Shown: one piece after another, positions 3,042-64,000 of the stretch | How positions within the stretch are numbered: the first letter of the stretch is position 1 | Layout: each line of letters starts with the position of its first letter | Sequence record: OZ335964.1 | Source: a phage | DNA length: 64,000 bases | Reading direction: 5' to 3' (one strand) | Notes under the pieces: generated by a model | The model's database searches: none | Seen by the model: only the letters and a program-made list of their open reading frames with translations | What the model was told of the DNA's origin: nothing | Position numbers and translations under genes: made by a program

Positions 3042-3558
3042 AAAATTGGTCCAGGCTAGGCAATTCCTCGGTCAATACATCTTCAACCTTTGGCGCTTTC
3101 GGTTTATTGACCGATTCCTCGTAGTTGTTGATTTTATCGTAAATGTCCTGTATGAATGCCTCATCCGCAATCTGGCACATATCAGCGTCGCGTTCGTCAT
3201 ATACATGATGCACAAAATATTTGTATTTTGCGGCTGTCGCTGTTCTTTCTTTTTTAATGCGCTGCACAAAAGCATTAAAGCACGCTTGCGTAATGTAAGC
3301 ATGAGGATTTTTATACTTTGTCTCGTCAAAATTAATCAAACCCTTGACCGCCGCTTCGATTCCGTCGTCGATCATTTCTTCGCGCCATGTTTGACTATAG
3401 CCAGAAAAGTTAAAACGCCGTGATAGATTTTTAGAGATTTGCATAATTGCTAGACCGATTTGGTCGCTCATTGGCACTTGCCGACCTTCTGCTGCAATTC
3501 GTTGTTTCCAACGGCAAATTTCTTCGTAAAGCTCTTTATTGTTTACATAATCAGACAC
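3025..3558 (-). CDS. 55: late-transcription sigma factor gp55
   Basis: 177 aa; YVNNKEL...FNFSGY...[29 protein letters not shown] matches remembered T4 gp55; GTG start with GAGGGT RBS. Confidence 0.9.
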
Positions 3559-3598
3559 TTCGCACCCTCGCTATTATTTAGGAAATAACCCTTTCGGG

Positions 3599-5068
3599 CT
3601 ATTCCCCATTACCATTATACTTTCTTTGCTTAGTTATCCACACTCTAACCATTTCTACTGATTCGCCGTCAGACGGATCAAGAGTTTTTCCTTTTTTCTT
3701 CATGCGGTACTTAAATCCGTTAAATCTTGCATTCTCTTGCTCGTTAAAGTCGAACATCTTTTTAAATGATTTTCGCCCTTTACGCTCACCACATTCTAGC
3801 GGAATCATTCGGTCTGTTATTACATTGGCATTAGGTAGAAACGTTTTTAGATAATCCACCAACGCCCAATCAGGAACATATAGATTAACATTCTCCTTGC
3901 TCTCGTTGTCTCTCAGGTTACAACGCAAACATAATTGAAATGCTGGTTCCAGATAATCAGACACATGACGCGCTTTCAAAAACTCGTTTGTCGGGAGATC
4001 ACAACTATTAGCAAGACCTTTTAAAATATCAATCTCCCATCGTTGAGGGTTAAAGCTGAACATCACAGCAACATTTTTATGATGAATGTAAGAGTTAAGA
4101 CCATAAGATCCGTAAGGTATCCGCTCACCAATACCATTTGTGCACGCTTCTCGGTCCCGATTCACGGTATAAATGAAGTCATCACCACATTCATTTTTAA
4201 CCATATCAACAAGACGTTCAAAGGTATTGTTTGTTTCTGACTGGTGACGCGACCATCGTTCAGAGTCCGTCATAAGGATGATGTTAACTCTATCTGTATT
4301 TTTATACTCTTTGAAATATAGTCTGGATTCTAGCGCACTCGGAACAAAATCGCAATTTGCATAGTATCGTAGATACTTCCCACTATATGTATCAAAGAGA
4401 TTTGCACATGCTATCGTAACCTTTTTAAAGTCTCCCCACGTACCGTGTTTGTTATCGTTCAAGAAAACAATTTTCGACCCATTCTTCCGGTGTCCTTCGT
4501 TATGTTTTACCATAACGTTGATTTTCTTCTCTAATAACGCCTCATAAAGCCCTCTAAGCGAAGAATCGATCATATCAGTACCATCCTTCGCACTTTCTAT
4601 CTTTTCTTTGATAGCGGACTTCTCAGAGTCTTTTAGAACTAAGTTCTGTAGGCATTCCGATTCGTCGGCGATTGGTTCGCAATGCTTCGTGATAAGTTCA
4701 AGATTAGACTTAAACGGATACTCATTAAATTCAACCAGTTGAGGAACTTCATCAATGTAAAGAGCATAATCACCAAACATTTTTGAACGTTCCATATTAG
4801 ATAACGCTGTATGTGTAATGAATATCACATCAGCACCGTCTTTAACTGATTGCATTATCGACGCTTGCACTGTCTTAAGGCTTCTTAGTCGTGTGCTATC
4901 AATCAAGACAGCACGACCGCCCATTCTTTTAAACTTATTGTAAGATTGTTCACTTAAAACACGAGATGGCGAAGCAATAACCGCTTTTTCTTTTGTCTCT
5001 AGGACGTGGGAAAGTATAGCATCAGTTTTCCCCGCCGCTGGCAATGCGATTAATGTTTCAATCTTCAT
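3599..5068 (-). CDS. P-loop NTPase of unknown function (Walker A ALPAAGKT, Walker B ALYIDE)
   Basis: 489 aa; Walker A/B motifs read directly; sits after gp55, next to the slot where T4 has a-gt; no family assignment possible without search. Confidence 0.6.
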   Translation of the reverse strand: MKIETLIALPAAGKTDAILSHVLETKEKAVIASPSRVLSEQSYNKFKRMGGRAVLIDSTRLRSLKTVQASIMQSVKDGADVIFITHTALSNMERSKMFGDYALYIDEVPQLVEFNEYPFKSNLELITKHCEPIADESECLQNLVLKDSEKSAIKEKIESAKDGTDMIDSSLRGLYEALLEKKINVMVKHNEGHRKNGSKIVFLNDNKHGTWGDFKKVTIACANLFDTYSGKYLRYYANCDFVPSALESRLYFKEYKNTDRVNIILMTDSERWSRHQSETNNTFERLVDMVKNECGDDFIYTVNRDREACTNGIGERIPYGSYGLNSYIHHKNVAVMFSFNPQRWEIDILKGLANSCDLPTNEFLKARHVSDYLEPAFQLCLRCNLRDNESKENVNLYVPDWALVDYLKTFLPNANVITDRMIPLECGERKGRKSFKKMFDFNEQENARFNGFKYRMKKKGKTLDPSDGESVEMVRVWITKQRKYNGNGE

Positions 5069-40259: not shown

Positions 40260-41402
40260 TTAACTATTGATCATATCAATGACGTTTTGTAGCTCTGATA
40301 TGGATAGCGTTTCTGTATATCCATCGGGCATATCTTCTTTACTAACATAGAAACCTTTATACTTTTTCTTTATTGCACATTCCATAGAAAGAGCATCATC
40401 ACCGTTATCGTATTTTTTATAAAATGTCAACTCATGACGAAATATAGATTTTGAAGATTGGTTTTGTATTCTTTTTATTAATCTGTTGTTGGTTATACCA
40501 AATTTTATAGCAACCGCAACATCTTCTTTGTATAAAGTTTGTACATAAATGTATGCAGGTTTATTCCTCTTAAATCCATGATTGCTACACATAGGGCAAC
40601 CGCTATTTTTTGATACGTAGTCTCCTAAGTTTGGCGTAAATTCATGTCCGCTACTACAACGCATTACCAATTTTGTTTTTAGCATTCCTCTATACTCACC
40701 GCCAACAAAATCAACAAATGTATCACCTTTATCAATCGCCTTATCTGTTATTTCCTTTACTACTTGCTCAGTTGACTTCTTGTTTTTACCTGAACATAGT
40801 TTACATCTAGATCCATTAACTAAAAACGAGTGACCAGATGCAGTATATTCATGTCCATTAGGACATTTAACTAAGATATTTCTTTCATAAAAATCTTTAT
40901 AATCAGACACATAGCCAATAACTTCGTGGTCTTTTTGGGCATTCCTCATCTCTGTTAGCAACTCTTCGCTATTCCAGCGTTTACCCTTAACGCAGAGACA
41001 ACCATGACCTTGATAAAGATATATAAATTTCTTAGTAAAGTTTTTGTTACAGTCAGGGCAGTGCATTAGTAATTCTGTCATTTGACCTGTATACCCTTTA
41101 GGAATATCGATCAATGTGTATTTTCCGCATATTGTCTTTAATGCATCATCTATTCTTTCTTTGGTCCAGCGTAAGCGACCAGTGCATTCATGACATTTTA
41201 CACCCAGTCTAAGAGTATCTAAACTAAATATAGTTGACGTATGTCCTTTATCACATTTTAACTTAAATCTAGTATCCTTTGCGTTGGTGTATTCTCCAAC
41301 TAGACCATACCATTCATAACCACATGGGATATGTTCTTTTACCTTCTCTAGATATACACCGAACGGTCTAGGAACTGAATTAGGTTTTCTTTCTTTAGTC
41401 AT
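40260..41402 (-). CDS. multi-zinc-ribbon protein with C-terminal GIY-YIG-like (T5orf172-type) nuclease domain; probable free-standing homing-endonuclease-like gene
   Basis: 380 aa; four about 45 aa Cys modules (CDKGH..CHEC, CPDC, CPNGH..CKLC, CSSGH..CPMC) then KPAYIYVQ...KFGITNNRLIKR; inserted between gp3 and gp2. Confidence 0.5.
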   Translation of the reverse strand: MTKERKPNSVPRPFGVYLEKVKEHIPCGYEWYGLVGEYTNAKDTRFKLKCDKGHTSTIFSLDTLRLGVKCHECTGRLRWTKERIDDALKTICGKYTLIDIPKGYTGQMTELLMHCPDCNKNFTKKFIYLYQGHGCLCVKGKRWNSEELLTEMRNAQKDHEVIGYVSDYKDFYERNILVKCPNGHEYTASGHSFLVNGSRCKLCSGKNKKSTEQVVKEITDKAIDKGDTFVDFVGGEYRGMLKTKLVMRCSSGHEFTPNLGDYVSKNSGCPMCSNHGFKRNKPAYIYVQTLYKEDVAVAIKFGITNNRLIKRIQNQSSKSIFRHELTFYKKYDNGDDALSMECAIKKKYKGFYVSKEDMPDGYTETLSISELQNVIDMINS

Positions 41403-42290: not shown

Positions 42291-42764
42291 CTATTTGTTA
42301 AGCCCTTTAAAGCCAAATACTTTCTTTAATGCATGTTCGGTGATGATCTTAAACTCCATGTTATGCTTTTGGCATAATTTCACGGCAGCTAACCATTTTT
42401 CAGTATTTTTTGTGTACGTCCATACTTCATGCATATATCGTTGCTTTGTCTTTGCGGTCATTCTTTTTGGCTTTTCCGGTGGCCTTGTCTCTTTAGCTGG
42501 TTTAACTTCCCATAAATGCTCCTTGCCATCATCAAACTTAACGTAAAAATCCATAAAGTATCTGTGTCTTTTTCCGTCTGTTGATGACTCATAAGGAATT
42601 ACTACGGTCTCAGATCCCCATTTTGCAACTCTAGGATTGCGGTCTAGCCACTGCATGATCCATCTTTCCCAGCTTGAACGGTATGTGATCTTACGTATAT
42701 CCCCTTTATACTTTTCCTTATTCTCAGGAACATACTTACCCTTATAAGTGTTAGATCCTCCCAT
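42291..42764 (-). CDS. 4: head completion protein gp4
   Basis: 157 aa; divergent from gp53 as in T4. Confidence 0.8.
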   Translation of the reverse strand: MGGSNTYKGKYVPENKEKYKGDIRKITYRSSWERWIMQWLDRNPRVAKWGSETVVIPYESSTDGKRHRYFMDFYVKFDDGKEHLWEVKPAKETRPPEKPKRMTAKTKQRYMHEVWTYTKNTEKWLAAVKLCQKHNMEFKIITEHALKKVFGFKGLNK

Positions 42765-56938: not shown

Positions 56939-58339
56939 ATGGCAAACAATACTATTAACCATGTAAAAGACGATGCTCAATACGTCAAGTTTAACCCTGT
57001 AAATGATTGGCCTCAAAGCATTACCAACGTACAAGCGGCTTTAGCCGCTATTAACGGCTTTGCCGTAAATGGATTACCGGACGCTACGGAAGATACAGCC
57101 GGGATCGCTGCAATCGCAACTCAGGAAGAAGTAAACGACGGTACAGTAGACAATAAGATCGTGACTCCAAAAACACTGGCTGTTAAAATGTCACGTCCAG
57201 ATGCCACAAAAGAAGTAAAGGGTATCACCCGATTTGCCACGATGGAAGAATCGCTGCAAGAGAGCAACGAGAACATGGCAATCGGTCCAGACACACTAAA
57301 CCATTACTTCACCACTAAAAAGGCGTCAGAGAGCGTTCAGGGGACTATTAAGATATGTTCTCTTGAGGCAGCAAAGATTGGCAGTGATGACACAATGGCA
57401 GTAACACCGAAAAAGATGCACACTGCTATTGCACAGATTGTACCGGGATTAATTCCAGATCAAAACACAGCAACCGAAAGCGCACAAGGTTTAGTTCAGT
57501 TAGCAACCAATGCGCAAGTTTTACAAGGCCAGATTCGAGAAGGTTTTGCAATTAGCCCTTATGCATTTGCAAATGCTCGCGCCAATGAGAATCAGGCGGG
57601 TACTGTTAAGATCGCCAACCAGTCACAGATGAATGCTGGTTCAGATGATACTGTAGTTGTTTCTGCTAAGAAGTTTGCAAGCACTAAGGCAACAACGTCT
57701 CAATACGGTATTGTTAAACTACGAGACACCGTAGGAAGTGAGGCTAACGCTGCACTATCAGCAAATGCTAAGGTTCTTCCTAGCACTGGCGGTACGGTAA
57801 GCGGAAACGTCTATAAAGGTTCTAACTCAGACGGCAACCAGTTTGTTACTAAAAATGAATTAGCGAATCACGCAATGCCAATTGGTGGTATTATCCTTTC
57901 TGGATTCAATGCTGATCGCGGTGACTTTCTGATCTGTAATGGTCGTTCACTGAATAAAAATCAATATCCGCAATTATTTTCTGCGATTGGTTATACCTTT
58001 GGTGGTTCAGGTAACAATTTTAACCTTCCTGATATGCGTGGTTTAGTTGCTCGTGGTTGCGATCATGGAAGAAACTTTGATCCAGGCCGTCGATTTGGTT
58101 CTTATCAAGAAGACGCAATGCAGAGAATTACTGGTAAATTCCCTGTAGCTGACCGCTGGCGCGGTTGGTATGGTGGCGCATTTACTGCACAGCGCGGTCA
58201 ATGGAGCACGAACTATAAAAACGGTGGGGGTGATGATTGGGGTTCTACTGTTAACTTTGACTCAGGAAGATCCGTAAGAACGGCTAACGAGACTCGCGTC
58301 AAGAGTCTGGCATTAAACTACATCATAAGGGTGCGCTAA
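56939..58339 (+). CDS. 12: short tail fibre protein gp12
   Basis: MANNTINHV...YVKF...VQAALAAIN..VNGLPDA and C-terminal LPDMRGLVARG...LNYIIRV match remembered T4 gp12. Confidence 0.9.
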   Translation: MANNTINHVKDDAQYVKFNPVNDWPQSITNVQAALAAINGFAVNGLPDATEDTAGIAAIATQEEVNDGTVDNKIVTPKTLAVKMSRPDATKEVKGITRFATMEESLQESNENMAIGPDTLNHYFTTKKASESVQGTIKICSLEAAKIGSDDTMAVTPKKMHTAIAQIVPGLIPDQNTATESAQGLVQLATNAQVLQGQIREGFAISPYAFANARANENQAGTVKIANQSQMNAGSDDTVVVSAKKFASTKATTSQYGIVKLRDTVGSEANAALSANAKVLPSTGGTVSGNVYKGSNSDGNQFVTKNELANHAMPIGGIILSGFNADRGDFLICNGRSLNKNQYPQLFSAIGYTFGGSGNNFNLPDMRGLVARGCDHGRNFDPGRRFGSYQEDAMQRITGKFPVADRWRGWYGGAFTAQRGQWSTNYKNGGGDDWGSTVNFDSGRSVRTANETRVKSLALNYIIRVR

Positions 58340-60108
58340 TGATCGAACAATTAAACATTCGTAACATTCCTAACGTTGATGGTGTACCGGGCGAAGGCCA
58401 ACACTCAATCATGTGGATGAAAAATGGTGAATGTTTAAGCGCAGCAACTACCCAGACTGGTCATGACGGTACGCTTAACCGCGTACCTTATGCTATTCAG
58501 GAAAACGTTGTTCGCTTAGACGAAAACGCTAAAACAACTAAGACAAAAATTAATGAGATCGTAACTGCCGTTAATGACATTAAAACGACTTTAGGTGCAA
58601 TCGGTGACGGTAGCGTTATTGATATTGTAAACCAAACAATCGAACATGTCAATGCAGTCGAGGAAAACTTAGGAGAAACCGCAAGAACTCTCCAGACTGC
58701 CGTAACTGGTCTGGAAGGTGTTCAAATCAAGATCGGTGTTCGTCCAGCAGCAGATCCGAGCACACGAACGATCTATGATGATATTTCCTTCATTAAACAG
58801 GAGATGGGTGCATATCCGGGATTTAACATCAACGGACAGCCGGAAGCAGATAACTCCGGTTCTGGTATGAAATATCGTTTAATGCAGAATACAGCAGCAT
58901 TAAACAACCACGGTCAACGAATCTCCCAATTAGAAAGCGATTGGCAAGATTCTGATGTGGGCGATCTGACCGAGAAGGTAAACAAATTTCGTAGCGAACT
59001 AGGCGACACTTCCCTAGCCACACAGGATAATGTTTATCTTCGCTTGCGTACCAATACCCGCAATATTGCTAACTTATCAAATGAAGTCTTAGAAGTCAAG
59101 AAAGCAATTTTATTCGATGCGGTTCCTGATATCGGGACGAAAGTAACAAACCTTACTGCAAACTTTGACCGTTTAGACAGTGAAGTCAACGGCGTAGATT
59201 CTGGTATTCGTCCGCGACTGACGGCAATCGAAAATAAAATTGGCAATCCTCAAGCCGCAGGAAGTCTTGATTATCGTTTAACTAATCAGGAACGAGAATT
59301 TAATGACCTGAAAGTTACAGTTGGTGTTAGTGGCGCAGATGGCCTACGCGGTGAAGTTGCACGGTTGACTAACCAGATCGGGACCGACGTTGATCGTCAT
59401 ACTATCGCCGGACGAATCAAGATTATCGAAAACACACAAGGCCGTTTAGAAGCAAGTGTCCAGGACATTGAGCAAATGGTAGGCAATGCGCAATCCGGTA
59501 TTGTCGCTGGTGTGATGAAACTGTCAACTGATATGTATGGTGATCCACAAGGCGCTGATCAGTTTACTCAAGATGGTATTGTGAAAACTGTCAAGGCGAT
59601 CCAAAAATCTGATGCTGGTAAAGTCTCCGATGTTCCTGATGATGGGTATCATTATCTGCGTAAACACGGTGAATGGGTACAAGTGGCATATGCGGCGGGG
59701 GCATTCAAAAACACTACCGATATTACACTAGAACTTGATGCACAAGACACATACAAGGGTATTCCTTTGACGGACATGACCGCAGAAGTTCCGGTACGTC
59801 AGATGGTTAAAAGCGATTCGCTGGTTACTGTACAGGATAAAGGTTTATTCCGTTGTGTATTCCGCACATCGATTCACGCACAGCATAATGCTACCTTCGT
59901 GGTCGGTATTTTCAAAAACGGGCAAATTGTGCACGAGGTAAGAAATGGTCATTATGGCACTGATGAATTGACCAGCTATTCCACCAGTGCATTCCTAAAT
60001 ATTGAAAATGGCGATAATATAGATATTCGTATTAAGGGTGTATCTGCCGAGGCAGTAGCACAACCAGCACAAATTAAAGAGTTCCTCTTTGGGATTTCTC
60101 CGGTATAA
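58339..60108 (+). CDS. wac: fibritin (whisker, wac) with additional C-terminal domain after the foldon
   Basis: N-terminus VDGVPGEGQHSIMWMKNGE as T4 wac; foldon-like DGYHYLRKHGEWVQV followed by about 125 extra residues. Confidence 0.8.
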   Translation: MIEQLNIRNIPNVDGVPGEGQHSIMWMKNGECLSAATTQTGHDGTLNRVPYAIQENVVRLDENAKTTKTKINEIVTAVNDIKTTLGAIGDGSVIDIVNQTIEHVNAVEENLGETARTLQTAVTGLEGVQIKIGVRPAADPSTRTIYDDISFIKQEMGAYPGFNINGQPEADNSGSGMKYRLMQNTAALNNHGQRISQLESDWQDSDVGDLTEKVNKFRSELGDTSLATQDNVYLRLRTNTRNIANLSNEVLEVKKAILFDAVPDIGTKVTNLTANFDRLDSEVNGVDSGIRPRLTAIENKIGNPQAAGSLDYRLTNQEREFNDLKVTVGVSGADGLRGEVARLTNQIGTDVDRHTIAGRIKIIENTQGRLEASVQDIEQMVGNAQSGIVAGVMKLSTDMYGDPQGADQFTQDGIVKTVKAIQKSDAGKVSDVPDDGYHYLRKHGEWVQVAYAAGAFKNTTDITLELDAQDTYKGIPLTDMTAEVPVRQMVKSDSLVTVQDKGLFRCVFRTSIHAQHNATFVVGIFKNGQIVHEVRNGHYGTDELTSYSTSAFLNIENGDNIDIRIKGVSAEAVAQPAQIKEFLFGISPV

Positions 60109-60114
60109 GAAATT

Positions 60115-60139
60115 AAAGGGGCGTTAAGCCCCTTTTTCG
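60115..60139 (+). terminator. intrinsic terminator after fibritin
   Basis: GGGGC-GUUAA-GCCCC hairpin + UUUUU. Confidence 0.6.
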
Positions 60140-60154
60140 TTTATAGGTGATATT

Positions 60155-61087
60155 ATGTCAGGATATGTAACCAATAACCCTAGAGAATTAAAAGACGCTA
60201 TTCTACGTCGTTTAGGTGCACCAGTAATTAACATCGAGGTGACAGAAGACCAGATTTATGATTGTATTCAACGGGCATTAGAACTCTATGGAGAATATCA
60301 TTTTGATGGCGTGAATAAAGGTTATAAGGTATTTCATGTTAGCGCAGAACAAGCACAACACGGGGTATTTGATTTAAGCGATTCCGGCGTGTATGCGGTA
60401 ACTAAAATAATTCGAACAAACGTAGGAAGTGCTGCCACGATGGATGGTACTGCCGTTTATCCGTGGTTTACTGACTTTCTGTTAGGTTTAGCGGGTGTAA
60501 ACGGTGGATTGGGATCTGGTTGCAGTAAATTCTATGGTCCAAATGCAATGGGTGGTGATTTGGGTTATTTCGCCCAGCTTATGAGCTATCGTGCTACTAT
60601 GCAAAATATGCTTAATCCGCTTCCTGATTACTGGTATAATAGCGCAAACGGACAATTAAAAATTACGGGTAACTTCCGTGCTGGTGATATTATTGTCGCG
60701 GAGGTTTACGTGAAAAGCTATGTGGATGTTCCTGATATGATCGGGGCGGTTGCTGGTTATGCTCACGCTGGCGGGTGCGCTACTATCGGTGGAATCGATG
60801 CAATTTATGATAATCCTACCGCTGGATTAAATGGCATTGTTGCTGGTATGGGTTCTTCTCGTGAAAATAGTCAAGGCGCATATAATAACCGTTGGGTTAA
60901 AGATATGGCGGTTGCATTTACGCGTGAACTTTGGGGACAGATTCTGGCTAAACATCAAGGTCTGCAATTACCCGGTGGTATCACGGTCGATGGGGTTCGA
61001 ATCATCGAAGAAGCACGCGTCGAAATTGAAAGACTACGTGAAGAATTGGAATTGCTCGATCCGCCAGCAGGGATCATTATGGTATGA
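60155..61087 (+). CDS. 13: neck protein gp13
   Basis: 310 aa; synteny wac-13-14-15. Confidence 0.85.
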
Positions 61088-61123
61088 TTAATTGGGGGAA
61101 TATTCCCCCATTTGGAGTAACAC

Positions 61124-61864
61124 ATGTTCAATAATACTCTTTTTGCTCGCTTAGAATCCCAGAAAGACTACGAGAATACACGACAAACCGAGATTCTCAA
61201 TCCCTATGTAAACTTCAACGGTCATACTAATACCCAGACACTGGCTGATGTAATGGTTGCTGAATCTATCCAGATGCGCGGTGTAGAATTGTATTATATC
61301 CCTAGAGAATTTGTCAAACCGGATATGATCTTTGGTGAAGATGTTCAGAGCAAATTTACTAAAGCATGGAAGTTTGCTGCATATATCAATTCATTTGAGG
61401 GATATGAAGGTGCTGGTAATTTCTTCTCTAGTTTCGGGTATCAAGCTAATGATGAATTAACTTTTACGGTGAATCCGAATCTATTCAAACATCAAGTAGA
61501 CGGAAACGAGCCGAAAGCGGGGGATTTGATTTATATTCCTATGAGTAATGATTTATTTGAAATCAACTACTTAGAGCCGTATCAACCGTGGTTCCAGAAT
61601 GGCGCTAATGCTATGCGTAAAATCACAGCAGAGAAATTTGTGTATAGTGGCGAAGAACTTCGACCAGAATTACAGCGTAATGATGGAATTAATGTTGATG
61701 AGTTCGCGGATCTGGATCTTGCACCAATTACCAATCTTGATGGGCTGACAGATATTAACCTTGATCAATATAAAGAAGATAAGCAATTCAGAGACGAAGG
61801 TCGAGACTATATTCAACCGTTTGATCCGATTAATGGCACTGGTTCTCCTTTCGCCGATTTTTGA
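61124..61864 (+). CDS. 14: neck protein gp14
   Basis: 246 aa; synteny. Confidence 0.85.
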
Positions 61865-61904
61865 TAAATACTTGTATTGATATAATATAAGGATCTAATG
61901 ACTT

Positions 61905-62660
61905 ATGAAAAACTATTATCTATACGAAATAAAGAACAATATAAATGGTAAGATATATGTTGGCATTCGTGGGTATGATGGTGACATAAGTCAAGATCCT
62001 TATATGGGTAGTGGATTGACTCTTAAGAGGTCTATTAAAAAGAACGGGATAGAAAACTTCACAAAAACAATTCTCAAAACGTTTGACTCATGGAAAGAGG
62101 CAAGGAAAGCAGAAAGAGAAATAGTTACAGAGGAATTTGTAAAAAGAGAAGATACCTATAATGTTTCGGTTGGTGGACAAGGTGGAAATACTCACGCCGG
62201 GATGAGCGAAGAACGAAGAAAACTTGCAAGCGAAAGACACGCAGAAGCAAACCGAAATAGAGTATGGAAGCAAGAATCTAGAGATAAGGTTAGCGCAAGA
62301 TTCAAAGGTCATAAGCTATCACAGAAGCAGATAGACGCGCTAAAGAAGGCAAACACAGGAAGAAAGTTCACAGAAGAACACAAGTTCAAAATAGGTAAAA
62401 CGTGGCGAGGAAAGAAACGACCAGATATAGGAGAGAAGGTTGCGGCAAAATTAACAGGGAGAAAACTACCCCCAGAACATGTGGCAGCAATAACGCAAAA
62501 TACACCGAGAGGAAAACAACACTTTAGGGCAAAAAGATTCTTCATCGACGATATGGAATTTTATATTTTGAGTGATGCAGCTAAAATGTTTGGTATAAGT
62601 TATAAAACGGTTAAAGCTAGACTTCTCTCAGATAAGTTTCCTACATGGAGATATGAATAA
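61905..62660 (+). CDS. GIY-YIG homing endonuclease (Seg-like, free-standing)
   Basis: N-terminal YLYEIKNNINGKIYVGI GIY-YIG motif; Lys/Arg-rich DNA-binding C-terminus; inserted between gp14 and gp15; visibly AGA/AAA-rich codon usage. Confidence 0.8.
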   Translation: MKNYYLYEIKNNINGKIYVGIRGYDGDISQDPYMGSGLTLKRSIKKNGIENFTKTILKTFDSWKEARKAEREIVTEEFVKREDTYNVSVGGQGGNTHAGMSEERRKLASERHAEANRNRVWKQESRDKVSARFKGHKLSQKQIDALKKANTGRKFTEEHKFKIGKTWRGKKRPDIGEKVAAKLTGRKLPPEHVAAITQNTPRGKQHFRAKRFFIDDMEFYILSDAAKMFGISYKTVKARLLSDKFPTWRYE

Positions 62661-63494
62661 ATGTTTTCACATTTTTACAATTCGTCAATTAGACGGTATA
62701 TTGTATTGCTGGGTAATCTATTCTCCGGTGTACAGATTAAAAGGGTGCGTAGCGATGGTGATCGATTCATTAAAGTTCCTATTACCTACGCAAAGAAAGA
62801 AAAATTTATGATGAGTCTGGACAAGTATAATAATATTTCAAGTGAAGAAGATGTAGCAAAGGTAGAAACTATTCTACCGCGTATGTGTCTTTCTTTGATT
62901 GATATGACATACGCCCAGAACTTTAAAACCAATATTGCTAATAAAACAACTCCGAGATATACAGAAAACGGGATAAGAAGTATTACACAATATAATCCGG
63001 TTCCGTATAAATTTACGTTTGAATTGGGGATTTATACGCGTAACGAAGATGATATGTTTCAGATCGTCGAACAAATCCTCCCGTATTTTCAACCACATTT
63101 TAACTGCAAGATAAAAGAATTGCATGGTAATGATGTATGGATTGACCGAGATATTCAGGTTACTATTAGTTCAATCACTCCCGACGAACAGGTAGGCGAA
63201 GATAAGTTTTCTCGTCGCCGTCTGGAATGGACTATTATGTTTGAGTTCATTGGGTTTATCTATCCTCCAGCTACAGACGTTAGAGGTGAAATTAGAACGG
63301 TATATCTAGATTTTCATGCTAATTCTCGTGAATTGAATCCTAGCGGTAATTTTGAATCTGTGGATCATGAGGTGGTAAGTCGAAATGTAGATCAAAGCAA
63401 ATGGGATGGAAATAGTAAAGAATCATATTCTAGTGATATTCCTGTACCAGTTGCACCAACTCCACCGGGTCCACGTATTGTAAGAGAATTTTAA
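62661..63494 (+). CDS. 15: tail sheath stabiliser / completion protein gp15
   Basis: MFSHFYNSSIRRY...KVPITYA...DMFQIVEQILPYFQPHFN...FHAN matches remembered T4 gp15. Confidence 0.9.
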   Translation: MFSHFYNSSIRRYIVLLGNLFSGVQIKRVRSDGDRFIKVPITYAKKEKFMMSLDKYNNISSEEDVAKVETILPRMCLSLIDMTYAQNFKTNIANKTTPRYTENGIRSITQYNPVPYKFTFELGIYTRNEDDMFQIVEQILPYFQPHFNCKIKELHGNDVWIDRDIQVTISSITPDEQVGEDKFSRRRLEWTIMFEFIGFIYPPATDVRGEIRTVYLDFHANSRELNPSGNFESVDHEVVSRNVDQSKWDGNSKESYSSDIPVPVAPTPPGPRIVREF

Positions 63495-63516
63495 GAGGTA
63501 ATTATTATGTCAGATC

Positions 63517-64000
63517 TAGGCTTAGATATGAAGCAATTAATGAATTTCGAAAGTCTAGGTCTTCCGGGGTCATTCGACGCGGAAGAAGATCGAGTGAGTT
63601 ATGATCCGCTCGTCTTGACTCCGGTCGAAAGTCACCCAGAAGATCGTAATATTGACTTACAACGAGATTATAATGAGGCACGTCAGAATATTCATTTTCA
63701 GAATCAGATGATGATGGACGCAGCAAAGATTTATCTTGAACTTGCAAAAAATAGTGAGTCTCCGAGGTTCCTACAAGCGTTTAATGGCCTCATGCAGCAA
63801 ATGAGTAATAACAATAAAGAATTACTGAATATCCATAAGGATATGAAGAAAATCACCGAGCAAGCTGGAGAGAAAAAGAAAGATAATACCCCAGCCGCAC
63901 CAGTTAATATCCAGAATGCGACCGTCTTTATGGGTTCTCCTAGTGATTTAATGGATGAAATCGAAGACGAGGAAGCGCGAGTTATTGAAGGTGAGACAGT
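63517..64000 (+). CDS. 16: terminase small subunit gp16 (partial, continues past window end)
   Basis: Own translation: MSDLGLDMKQL...HFQNQMMMDAAKIYLELAKNSESPRF...NIQNATVFMGSPSDLMDEI matches remembered T4 gp16; absent from ORF track because no stop in window. Confidence 0.85.

Follow-up and report, generated by a model that had tools for sequence, protein, structure and literature searches.

A Seg-like GIY-YIG homing endonuclease gene at the gp14/gp15 junction of a phage related to RB49

The gp14/gp15 locus and its expression signals

The stretch of phage DNA analyzed here (the window; 64,000 nucleotides of record OZ335964.1) contains, on its + strand, a T4-type run of late genes in the order gp12, wac, gp13, gp14, a homing endonuclease gene (HEG), gp15, and gp16 (Table 1). 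A preliminary description had placed a Seg-like GIY-YIG homing endonuclease between gp14 and gp15, and this position was borne out by the Pfam matches of the two neighbors (PF11649 and PF16724); the flanking genes are named 14 and 15 in the RB49 record. The HEG encodes 251 aa, begins with ATG, and is given here with its stop codon included. Both neighbors are complete ORFs, and the gp15 ATG directly abuts the TAA stop of the HEG. The gene had originally been given a start at 61865; this is the first base past the gp14 stop codon, and its use adds the 40-nt upstream spacer. The gp13-gp14 gap in the window is 36 nt and holds no HEG, and no further GIY-YIG genes were found within the 64-kb window. 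The window also holds CapR/Zn-finger and TnsA-like ORFs.

Table 1. Features at and around the gp14/gp15 junction, in coordinates of the window
Feature	Coordinates	Strand	Evidence
gp14 neck protein (head closure), left flank	61124..61864	+	PF11649 E=8e-105; phrog_679
Promoter-like TTGATA (61861-61866), 14-nt spacer, TATAAT (61881-61886)	61861..61886	+	Read from sequence
Minimal mobile cassette, 806 bp, replacing 36 bp (CATAAACAAGGGGGTCAAATGTTCGGTTGGCACTAT) of the empty site	61873..62678	+	Junction alignments
Homing endonuclease CDS, 251 aa	61905..62660	+	phrog_314 'homing endonuclease' E=1e-46
GIY-YIG nuclease domain, aa 1-97	61905..62195	+	pLDDT >90; Foldseek; hhalign; BLASTP vs T4 SegD/E/A
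Five tandem ~17-aa NUMOD3-like basic repeats, aa 122-206	62268..62522	+	Repeat register, predicted helices
C-terminal I-TevI-type helix-turn-helix DNA-binding domain, aa 203-250	62511..62654	+	PF20987
gp15 tail sheath stabilizer/completion protein, right flank	62661..63494	+	PF16724 E=3e-95
Recoded gp15 start, six codons MFSHFY (ATGTTTTCACATTTTTAC), carried by the cassette	62661..62678	+	Junction alignments

The region of the window from 38000 to 61900 is ~92-96% identical to genomes of the RB49 group (Krischvirus, RB49-like coliphage). Against the same group, the genes from wac to gp15 form a diverged patch, with identities of 73-75% for wac, ~82% for gp13, 82-85% for gp14, and ~87% for gp15; identity returns to ~98% at gp16.

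The HEG had been described as visibly rich in AGA and AAA codons relative to its neighbors. A distinct codon usage was confirmed with respect to AGA, which accounts for 13 of the 21 Arg codons compared with a mean of 14% (z=3.7), the highest share among the 55 ORFs of at least 120 aa; the synonymous-codon log-likelihood of the gene is also the lowest in this set (z=-2.96), a signature of foreign origin. The abundance of AAA is explained by a high Lys content (13.5%, z=2.3) and does not reflect codon preference, as AAA makes up 0.56 of the Lys codons, under the typical ~0.7. GC content was not distinctive as a signal of foreign DNA (0.377 vs 0.404, z=-1.0).

The TTGATA and TATAAT elements reported upstream of the gene are present with the 14-nt spacing described, and their function as a promoter is doubtful. 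The usual spacer between -35 and -10 elements is 16-18 nt. A scan with the sigma-70 consensus gave only a 9/12 alternative and a total of 13 matches compared with 12.9 in shuffled sequence, which is not above chance. The sequence TGATATAAT at 61878-61886 is a perfect extended -10, and TGNTATAAT is enriched in the window (13 occurrences vs 4.9±2.1 expected, with 0/100 shuffles reaching 13). A transcript starting ~7 nt past TGATATAAT would fall within or after AAGGA, a weak Shine-Dalgarno sequence located ~10 nt from the ATG and the only one of its kind for this gene, and would have practically no leader, so promoter function is unproven. The late promoter motif TATAAATA occurs at four sites in the 64 kb, none of them close to the HEG. 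In I-TevI and some seg genes, the ribosome-binding site is sequestered in a hairpin; there was no sign of such a structure here, as 61850-61950 folded no better than shuffled sequences did (z=0.40). The HEG is predicted to be expressed, probably at a low level, via late read-through transcripts of the gp13-gp14 operon, the low level being expected from the poor Shine-Dalgarno sequence, its ~10-nt spacing, and the atypical codons. Seven free-standing endonucleases of T4, including segC, segF, and segG, have been described as 'promoter-less cassettes' (PMC2988022).

Domain architecture and family placement

The N-terminal GIY-YIG peptide noted at the outset, YLYEIKNNINGKIYVGI, is present at residues 5-21, and the Tyr motifs of the family are represented by LYEI (Y7) and IYVG (Y18). 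An AlphaFold (AF2) model built on 46 homologs predicted residues 1-97 with pLDDT values >90, and the top three solved structures identified with this model in Foldseek were those of the I-TevI catalytic domain (1mk0/1ln0; probability 1.0, TM 0.65-0.67, rmsd 3.3 Å). Comparison of the family alignment with I-TevI in hhalign gave a probability of 96% and E=5e-9. BLASTP searches against the T4 proteins (NC_000866) returned SegD as the best match (41% identity over residues 4-143, E=2e-26), followed by SegE (45%, E=6e-20), SegA (34%, E=1e-15), and SegF (33%, E=3e-5); SegG gave no BLASTP match. The matches to SegD, SegE, and SegA settle the placement of the protein in the Seg family. The alignment with I-TevI was collinear over almost the entire protein (residues 6-250 vs 5-242; 23% identity, E=1e-4).

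As a single sequence, the protein scores under the curated thresholds of the GIY-YIG models PF19835 (20.1 vs 25) and PF01541 (9.7 vs 22.6), which are matched (E<=1e-3) by 28/46 and 30/46 homologs, respectively. The low scores are attributed to divergence of this one sequence and not to a different fold. A single-sequence search of the PDB found no match at E<=1, and a profile search recovered only the 18-residue GIY-YIG motif (E=0.04), so that the structural assignment required the comparison of folds. The best NCBIfam match, TIGR01453, covers residues 7-246 with E=3.7e-10 and a score of 40.2 vs a cutoff of 56.05. Among ~5.8 billion non-redundant proteins, the HEG product forms one cluster of 100% identity, and its next relative is 43% identical.

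A Lys/Arg-rich DNA-binding region had been proposed at the C-terminus. In agreement with this, residues 98-205 contain 27.8% K+R (pI 10.9) and residues 206-251 contain 19.6%. The first of these segments includes the NUMOD3-like repeats, each of which closes with G[RHK][KQ]; the array is presumed to be a DNA-tracking linker. The NUMOD3 model itself scores 18.0 bits vs a gathering threshold of 20.4 in the HEG and matches 27/46 homologs. The C-terminal domain was identified with PF20987 at 31.7 bits vs a gathering threshold of 27 (E=1.4e-7, residues 203-250). Among the 46 closest GIY-YIG homologs, the query itself is the only one with PF20987 (1/46), and the other C-termini in the alignment differ.

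The overall arrangement resembles that of I-TevI, in which a GIY-YIG domain is followed by an extended linker with a NUMOD3-type helix and a C-terminal helix-turn-helix. Unlike I-TevI, the HEG product is not intron-encoded and has neither a counterpart of the Arg27/His31 helix nor a zinc finger, and I-TevI is not known to have a tandem array of NUMOD3-like repeats such as the five found here. T4 SegE, SegA, and SegF have in common with the HEG product the layout of the GIY-YIG N-terminal domain, YxGxH/R...YMGSG...E.E...YN..GG. Inspection by eye suggests a similar helix-turn-helix-like motif at the C-terminus of SegD, which BLASTP left unaligned. In a later study, SegD reportedly did not promote homing of its own gene. 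Both genes lie between late structural genes, segD between genes 23 and 24 and the HEG between 14 and 15; T4 segD is antisense to its neighbors (PMC2988022), unlike the HEG, which is co-oriented with them. Full-length relatives (36% identity, 98% coverage) are found among 'Seg-like/segD' proteins of RB16, Cronobacter, and Klebsiella phages, whose genes adjoin the capsid genes and thus also lie between late structural genes.

The empty site and lateral transfer of the cassette

Comparison of the junction across relatives revealed a sporadic distribution and not the universal presence that would have spoken against a mobile gene. The HEG was found in 9/58 related phage records with a matching gp14-gp15 region, comprising JSE (two records), FL20, TB34, SAP, G2494, AV108, MIZ4, and MIZ5, and is absent from RB49, GEC-3S, kaaroe, FL38, the Makalu phages, and three IMG/VR contigs. 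The window protein is 100% identical to JSE ACL78103.1 and six others and 99.6% identical to the MIZ4/5 proteins, and no other copies >60% identical occur among the 58 records. The exact protein was also located in 66 blocks of public assemblies; in 10/10 of the contexts listed (10 of the 66), the order is gp14, HEG, gp15. In IMG/VR, there were no other close copies, the best being 48-61% identical over the nuclease domain only, and a scan with the gp14 protein returned only HEG-minus contigs (80-88% identical). An exact 43-mer from the gp14 patch of the window had 0 matches in IMG/VR, as did a gp15 starting with MFSHFYNSS but lacking the HEG, which might represent a donor lineage. One diverged HEG-minus contig, L011, was used as a proxy for the pre-insertion allele of the window lineage.

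In HEG-minus phages, the empty site consists of TGA-TAAATACT, followed by the 36 nt CATAAACAAGGGGGTCAAATGTTCGGTTGGCACTAT and then by AATTCG. The 36 nt in the middle are swapped for the cassette in carriers, with identical breakpoints in all of them. The largest block common to the window and the JSE-type phages at ~99.7% identity extends over 61847..62717. Besides the HEG, the cassette brings its own start for gp15: MFSHFY is present in all HEG+ copies, and MFGWHY (ATGTTCGGTTGGCACTAT) in all HEG-minus copies, the two forms differing at 8/18 nt. The strong AAGGGGG ribosome-binding site of gp15 is removed in the exchange. L011, despite its divergence, retains ATGTTCGGTTGGCACTA. This segment, preserved in the empty sites and changed in all of the occupied ones, behaves as expected of part of a recognition or cleavage site, and we infer that it may serve as such.

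The cassette of the window was compared with 16 other copies and showed 99.6-99.9% nucleotide identity (1-3 differences in 796 nt), whereas the identities in the same comparisons were 82.5-84.8% for gp14 and 87.1-88.1% for gp15. The flanks of the other carriers are of RB49-group type and are 92-100% identical to one another, making the window the only sampled case of the cassette in a clearly different backbone. The presence of a near-identical cassette between diverged flanks shows that the transfer was lateral and recent. The window phage thus constitutes a natural experiment, in which the same cassette sits between gp14 and gp15 genes that are ~15% diverged and the co-converted flanks are bounded to a few tens of base pairs.

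The extent of these flanks was estimated from individual polymorphisms. On the left, alleles specific to the window lineage, most of them also present in L011, reach to 27-34 bp from the cassette, and the alleles at 21 and 18 bp are of RB49 type. On the right, RB49-type alleles are found at 3-18 bp, and those of the window lineage begin again at 40 bp; a C/A site located 16 bp beyond the right end of the cassette is polymorphic among carriers and non-carriers alike. The donor-derived block would therefore measure ~0.85 kb, and the conversion tracts would not exceed ~26 bp on the left and ~39 bp on the right. With tracts this short, the double-strand-break repair model would place the break within the block, close to the insertion point, and the predicted location of the cut is the gp14/gp15 intergenic region together with the gp15 start of RB49-type phages. 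The position of the cut near the insertion point remains a prediction, given that later recombination could have trimmed the tracts.

The 17 copies of the HEG differ by five synonymous changes vs one non-synonymous change. Under neutrality, approximately three quarters of the changes would be expected to be non-synonymous, and the probability of one or fewer among six is P≈0.005, a value that rests on few events. One of the synonymous changes, at 62198, is private to the window copy.

Proposed homing and alternative explanations

Collectively, sequence, fold, insertion site, and distribution support the initial reading of the gene as a free-standing, Seg-like GIY-YIG HEG. We consider it highly probable that it is active, or was until very recently, and that it homes into the empty gp14/gp15 junction. 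The cleavage activity, the position of the target site, the immunity of carriers, and expression of the HEG are what we infer from the comparisons above. In the proposed pathway, a carrier and a non-carrier Krischvirus would co-infect one cell, and the enzyme would bind the empty gp14/gp15 junction via its C-terminal helix-turn-helix and the five NUMOD3-like repeats, allowing the N-terminal GIY-YIG domain to cut close to the bound junction. Recombination-dependent repair would then use the carrier genome as a template and fill the break with the ~0.8-kb cassette. Carriers would be immune because their target is split, the 36-bp segment (the gp15 ribosome-binding site and six codons) is replaced, and the gp15 start is recoded.

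A more specific proposal, offered tentatively, is that this free-standing Seg enzyme acts like an intron endonuclease without an intron, cutting within ~25-40 bp of the insertion and moving in a minimal ~0.85-kb cassette with a recoded start of gp15, an essential gene. T4 SegE, SegA, SegF, and SegG are active, free-standing intergenic enzymes with a patchy distribution among close relatives (PMC2988022). For SegF and SegG, the cut lies hundreds of base pairs or more away from the respective gene, and the co-converted tracts are long (PMC2988022), unlike those found here, which do not exceed ~26 and ~39 bp. The cuts made by intron-encoded enzymes are within 25 bp of where the intron is inserted (PMC2988022); the cut suggested for the HEG, near its insertion point, resembles theirs and fits the I-TevI-like architecture. 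If the proposal is true, the cassette can invade backbones that are ~15% diverged and leave almost no co-conversion scar.

The gene might instead be a genuine former HEG whose product has lost catalysis or been domesticated, for instance as a DNA-binding regulator of the gp15 region, and which spreads only by ordinary homologous recombination when phages co-infect a cell. The catalytic residues were examined by comparison with the I-TevI set Y6, Y17, R27, E75, and N90. The helix bearing Arg27 has no aligned counterpart in the HEG product (hhalign), and a near-invariant His, kept in at least 90% of the homologs, is replaced at R22 (Arg or Tyr in the HEG). Together with the sub-threshold GIY-YIG Pfam scores, these substitutions are compatible with loss of activity; in addition, I-TevI doubles as an autorepressor (PMC2988022), and the activity of SegD, the closest T4 relative, is given as 'ND' (PMC2988022). 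However, Y7, Y18, E70, and N86 are intact in the HEG and invariant across the 46 homologs, and E72 is present as well. The Arg27-bearing helix likewise has no counterpart in T4 SegA, SegD, and SegE; since SegA and SegE are listed as active endonucleases (PMC2988022) while lacking the same helix and having the same 'YxGxH...YMGSG' layout, its absence from the HEG product need not mean inactivity. Passive recombination also poorly explains a 99.9%-identical block of 0.8 kb with breakpoints within ~25-40 bp of the same insertion point and flanks that are ~15% diverged. A dead or domesticated gene is therefore unlikely.

An intact HEG in a mobile cassette could also have been moved in trans, by another HEG of the donor phage or following general DNA breaks, and for this there is precedent in I-TevIII, which is moved by MobE. 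Candidates exist: Krischvirus genomes hold several further HEG-like genes, seven of them in JSE (Petrov et al. 2010, PMC2993671), and the CapR/Zn-finger and TnsA-like ORFs lie in the window itself. A related seg-like gene occupies the neighboring intergenic site of the same neck-gene cluster, between gp13 and gp14, in MIZ4 (CDS0263), Makalu_001 (gp147), L015, and L038. Its product is the closest paralog found (33% identity over residues 4-243, E=9e-36) and has the same GIY-YIG/NUMOD3/helix-turn-helix build and the same 'G(V/I)R..DG' variant of the His motif, with a different sequence. This gene is missing, however, from the window and from most carriers of the gp14/gp15 HEG. Moreover, the ORF of the latter is intact and its changes are mainly synonymous, and the short tracts point to a break at the gp14/gp15 junction, matching the I-TevI-like architecture of its own product. 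Mobilization in trans is thus very unlikely, and homing by the gp14/gp15 HEG itself is preferred.

The identity of the HEG was already known, as the same protein has been deposited under the name 'Homing endonuclease' for JSE (EpJSE_00154, ACL78103.1) and for no fewer than six further phages; the copies in JSE, FL20, TB34, SAP, G2494, AV108, and MIZ4/5 lie at the same gene 14/15 insertion point, and only the genomic background of the window HEG differs from theirs. A survey of T4-like genomes listed one seg-like GIY-YIG HEG in JSE and none in RB49 (Petrov et al. 2010, Table 5; PMC2993671), and no paper characterizing this HEG or its target was found in the literature. Free-standing GIY-YIG HEGs are a well-known and patchy part of T4-like genomes, and the present analysis is of value mainly for correct annotation. 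Only mildly new are the transfer of the cassette into a background that is ~15% diverged and the prediction that the cut lies close to the insertion. In phages now used in therapy (JSE, GEC-3S, and the FL/AV collections), cassettes of this kind mark hot spots of recombination.

Annotation is also where the gene has been read as an intron-encoded endonuclease, given the label 'group I intron endonuclease' in the G2494 record, the TIGR01453 match (E=3.7e-10), and the I-TevI-like architecture; this reading is effectively refuted, as the HEG follows the gp14 stop codon and precedes the gp15 start codon, each of these genes being separate and complete, the TIGR01453 score of 40.2 is under the cutoff of 56, the 5' junction has no significant RNA structure (z=0.4), and a comparison of 60000-64000 with Rfam (E<=1) detected no family, group I introns included. 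The label in the G2494 record is a naming artefact.

Sequence mosaicism around the HEG

The genes flanking the homing endonuclease gene (HEG) lie in a mosaic patch that extends from wac to gp15 (see table). Within it, nucleotide identity to the RB49 group is 73-75% for wac, ~82% for gp13, 82-85% for gp14, and ~87% for gp15; the values are ~98% for gp16, beyond the patch, and ~92-96% for 38000-61900 overall. The right edge of the patch is the gp15/gp16 boundary, not the HEG. The nearest source found was L011, an HEG-minus IMG/VR contig (88-91% identity). Its gp14-gp15 spacer differs (CATAAAAGGAGGTTCCCG versus CATAAACAAGGGGGTCAA) and codons 6-12 of gp15 contain several synonymous differences; ATGTTCGGTTGGCACTA is retained. 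The L011 junction could be a natural, possibly resistant, variant of the predicted HEG target site. A separate observation concerns gp15 of phage G2494, where a perfect 55-bp tandem duplication (~3545-3600 of the compared sequence L003) splits the gene into two annotated CDSs, reflecting either a frameshifted essential gene or an assembly artefact.

The adjacent gp13-gp14 intergenic site is occupied in some Krischvirus phages by a related second seg-like HEG, whose 271-aa product is 33% identical to that of the window HEG (E=9e-36). MIZ4/5 and the compared sequence L038 have HEGs at both gp13-gp14 and gp14-gp15, and the window has no seg-like HEG at gp13-gp14.

Features identified in the window and in compared sequences
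Feature	Sequence	Position	Strand	Details
Mosaic patch	window	~58339-63494		wac to gp15; defined by identity to RB49 group
Variant gp14-gp15 junction	L011	3738-3790		HEG-minus; UViG_3300005711_000020
gp13-gp14 seg-like HEG	L004 (MIZ4)	686-1501
gp13-gp14 seg-like HEG	L010 (Makalu_001)	686-1501
gp13-gp14 seg-like HEG	L038	1368-2183
gp13-gp14 seg-like HEG	L015	~2430-2700
Extended -10 sites (examples)	window	5483, 12451, 20572, 38806, 61878		TGNTATAAT
Terminator-like hairpin	window	60115-60135	both	strong, bidirectional; AAAGGGGCGTTAAGCCCCTTT then T run
380-aa ORF	window	40260-41402	-	CapR homology and DUF4379 domains
157-aa ORF	window	42291-42764	-	TnsA-like endonuclease N-terminal domain (PF08722)

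Expression signals

The extended -10 motif TGNTATAAT is enriched across the window, with 13 sites (7 on the - strand) against 4.9±2.1 expected, a count reached in 0/100 shuffles. Exact TATAAATA occurs only 4 times in the window and is not enriched. The hairpin lies between wac and gp13, and the G2494 and TB34 records annotate a terminator at the matching position. A terminator predicted there suggests that gp13-gp14-HEG-gp15 may require a separate promoter; none of their own was identified in the window.

Other AGA-rich ORFs

Codon usage was compared among the 55 window ORFs of at least 120 aa. AGA accounts for 0.59 of Arg codons in the 380-aa ORF, the second-highest value, and its GC content (0.34) is the minimum of the set. 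Its Pfam matches are a CapR homology domain (E=6e-13) and a treble-clef zinc finger, DUF4379 (E=4e-8). By appearance, this ORF is one more mobile or endonuclease-derived gene. The 157-aa ORF matches PF08722 with E=4e-21; its AGA richness (share, 0.50) and poor codon fit in the same comparison suggest that it is possibly a further free-standing nuclease gene.
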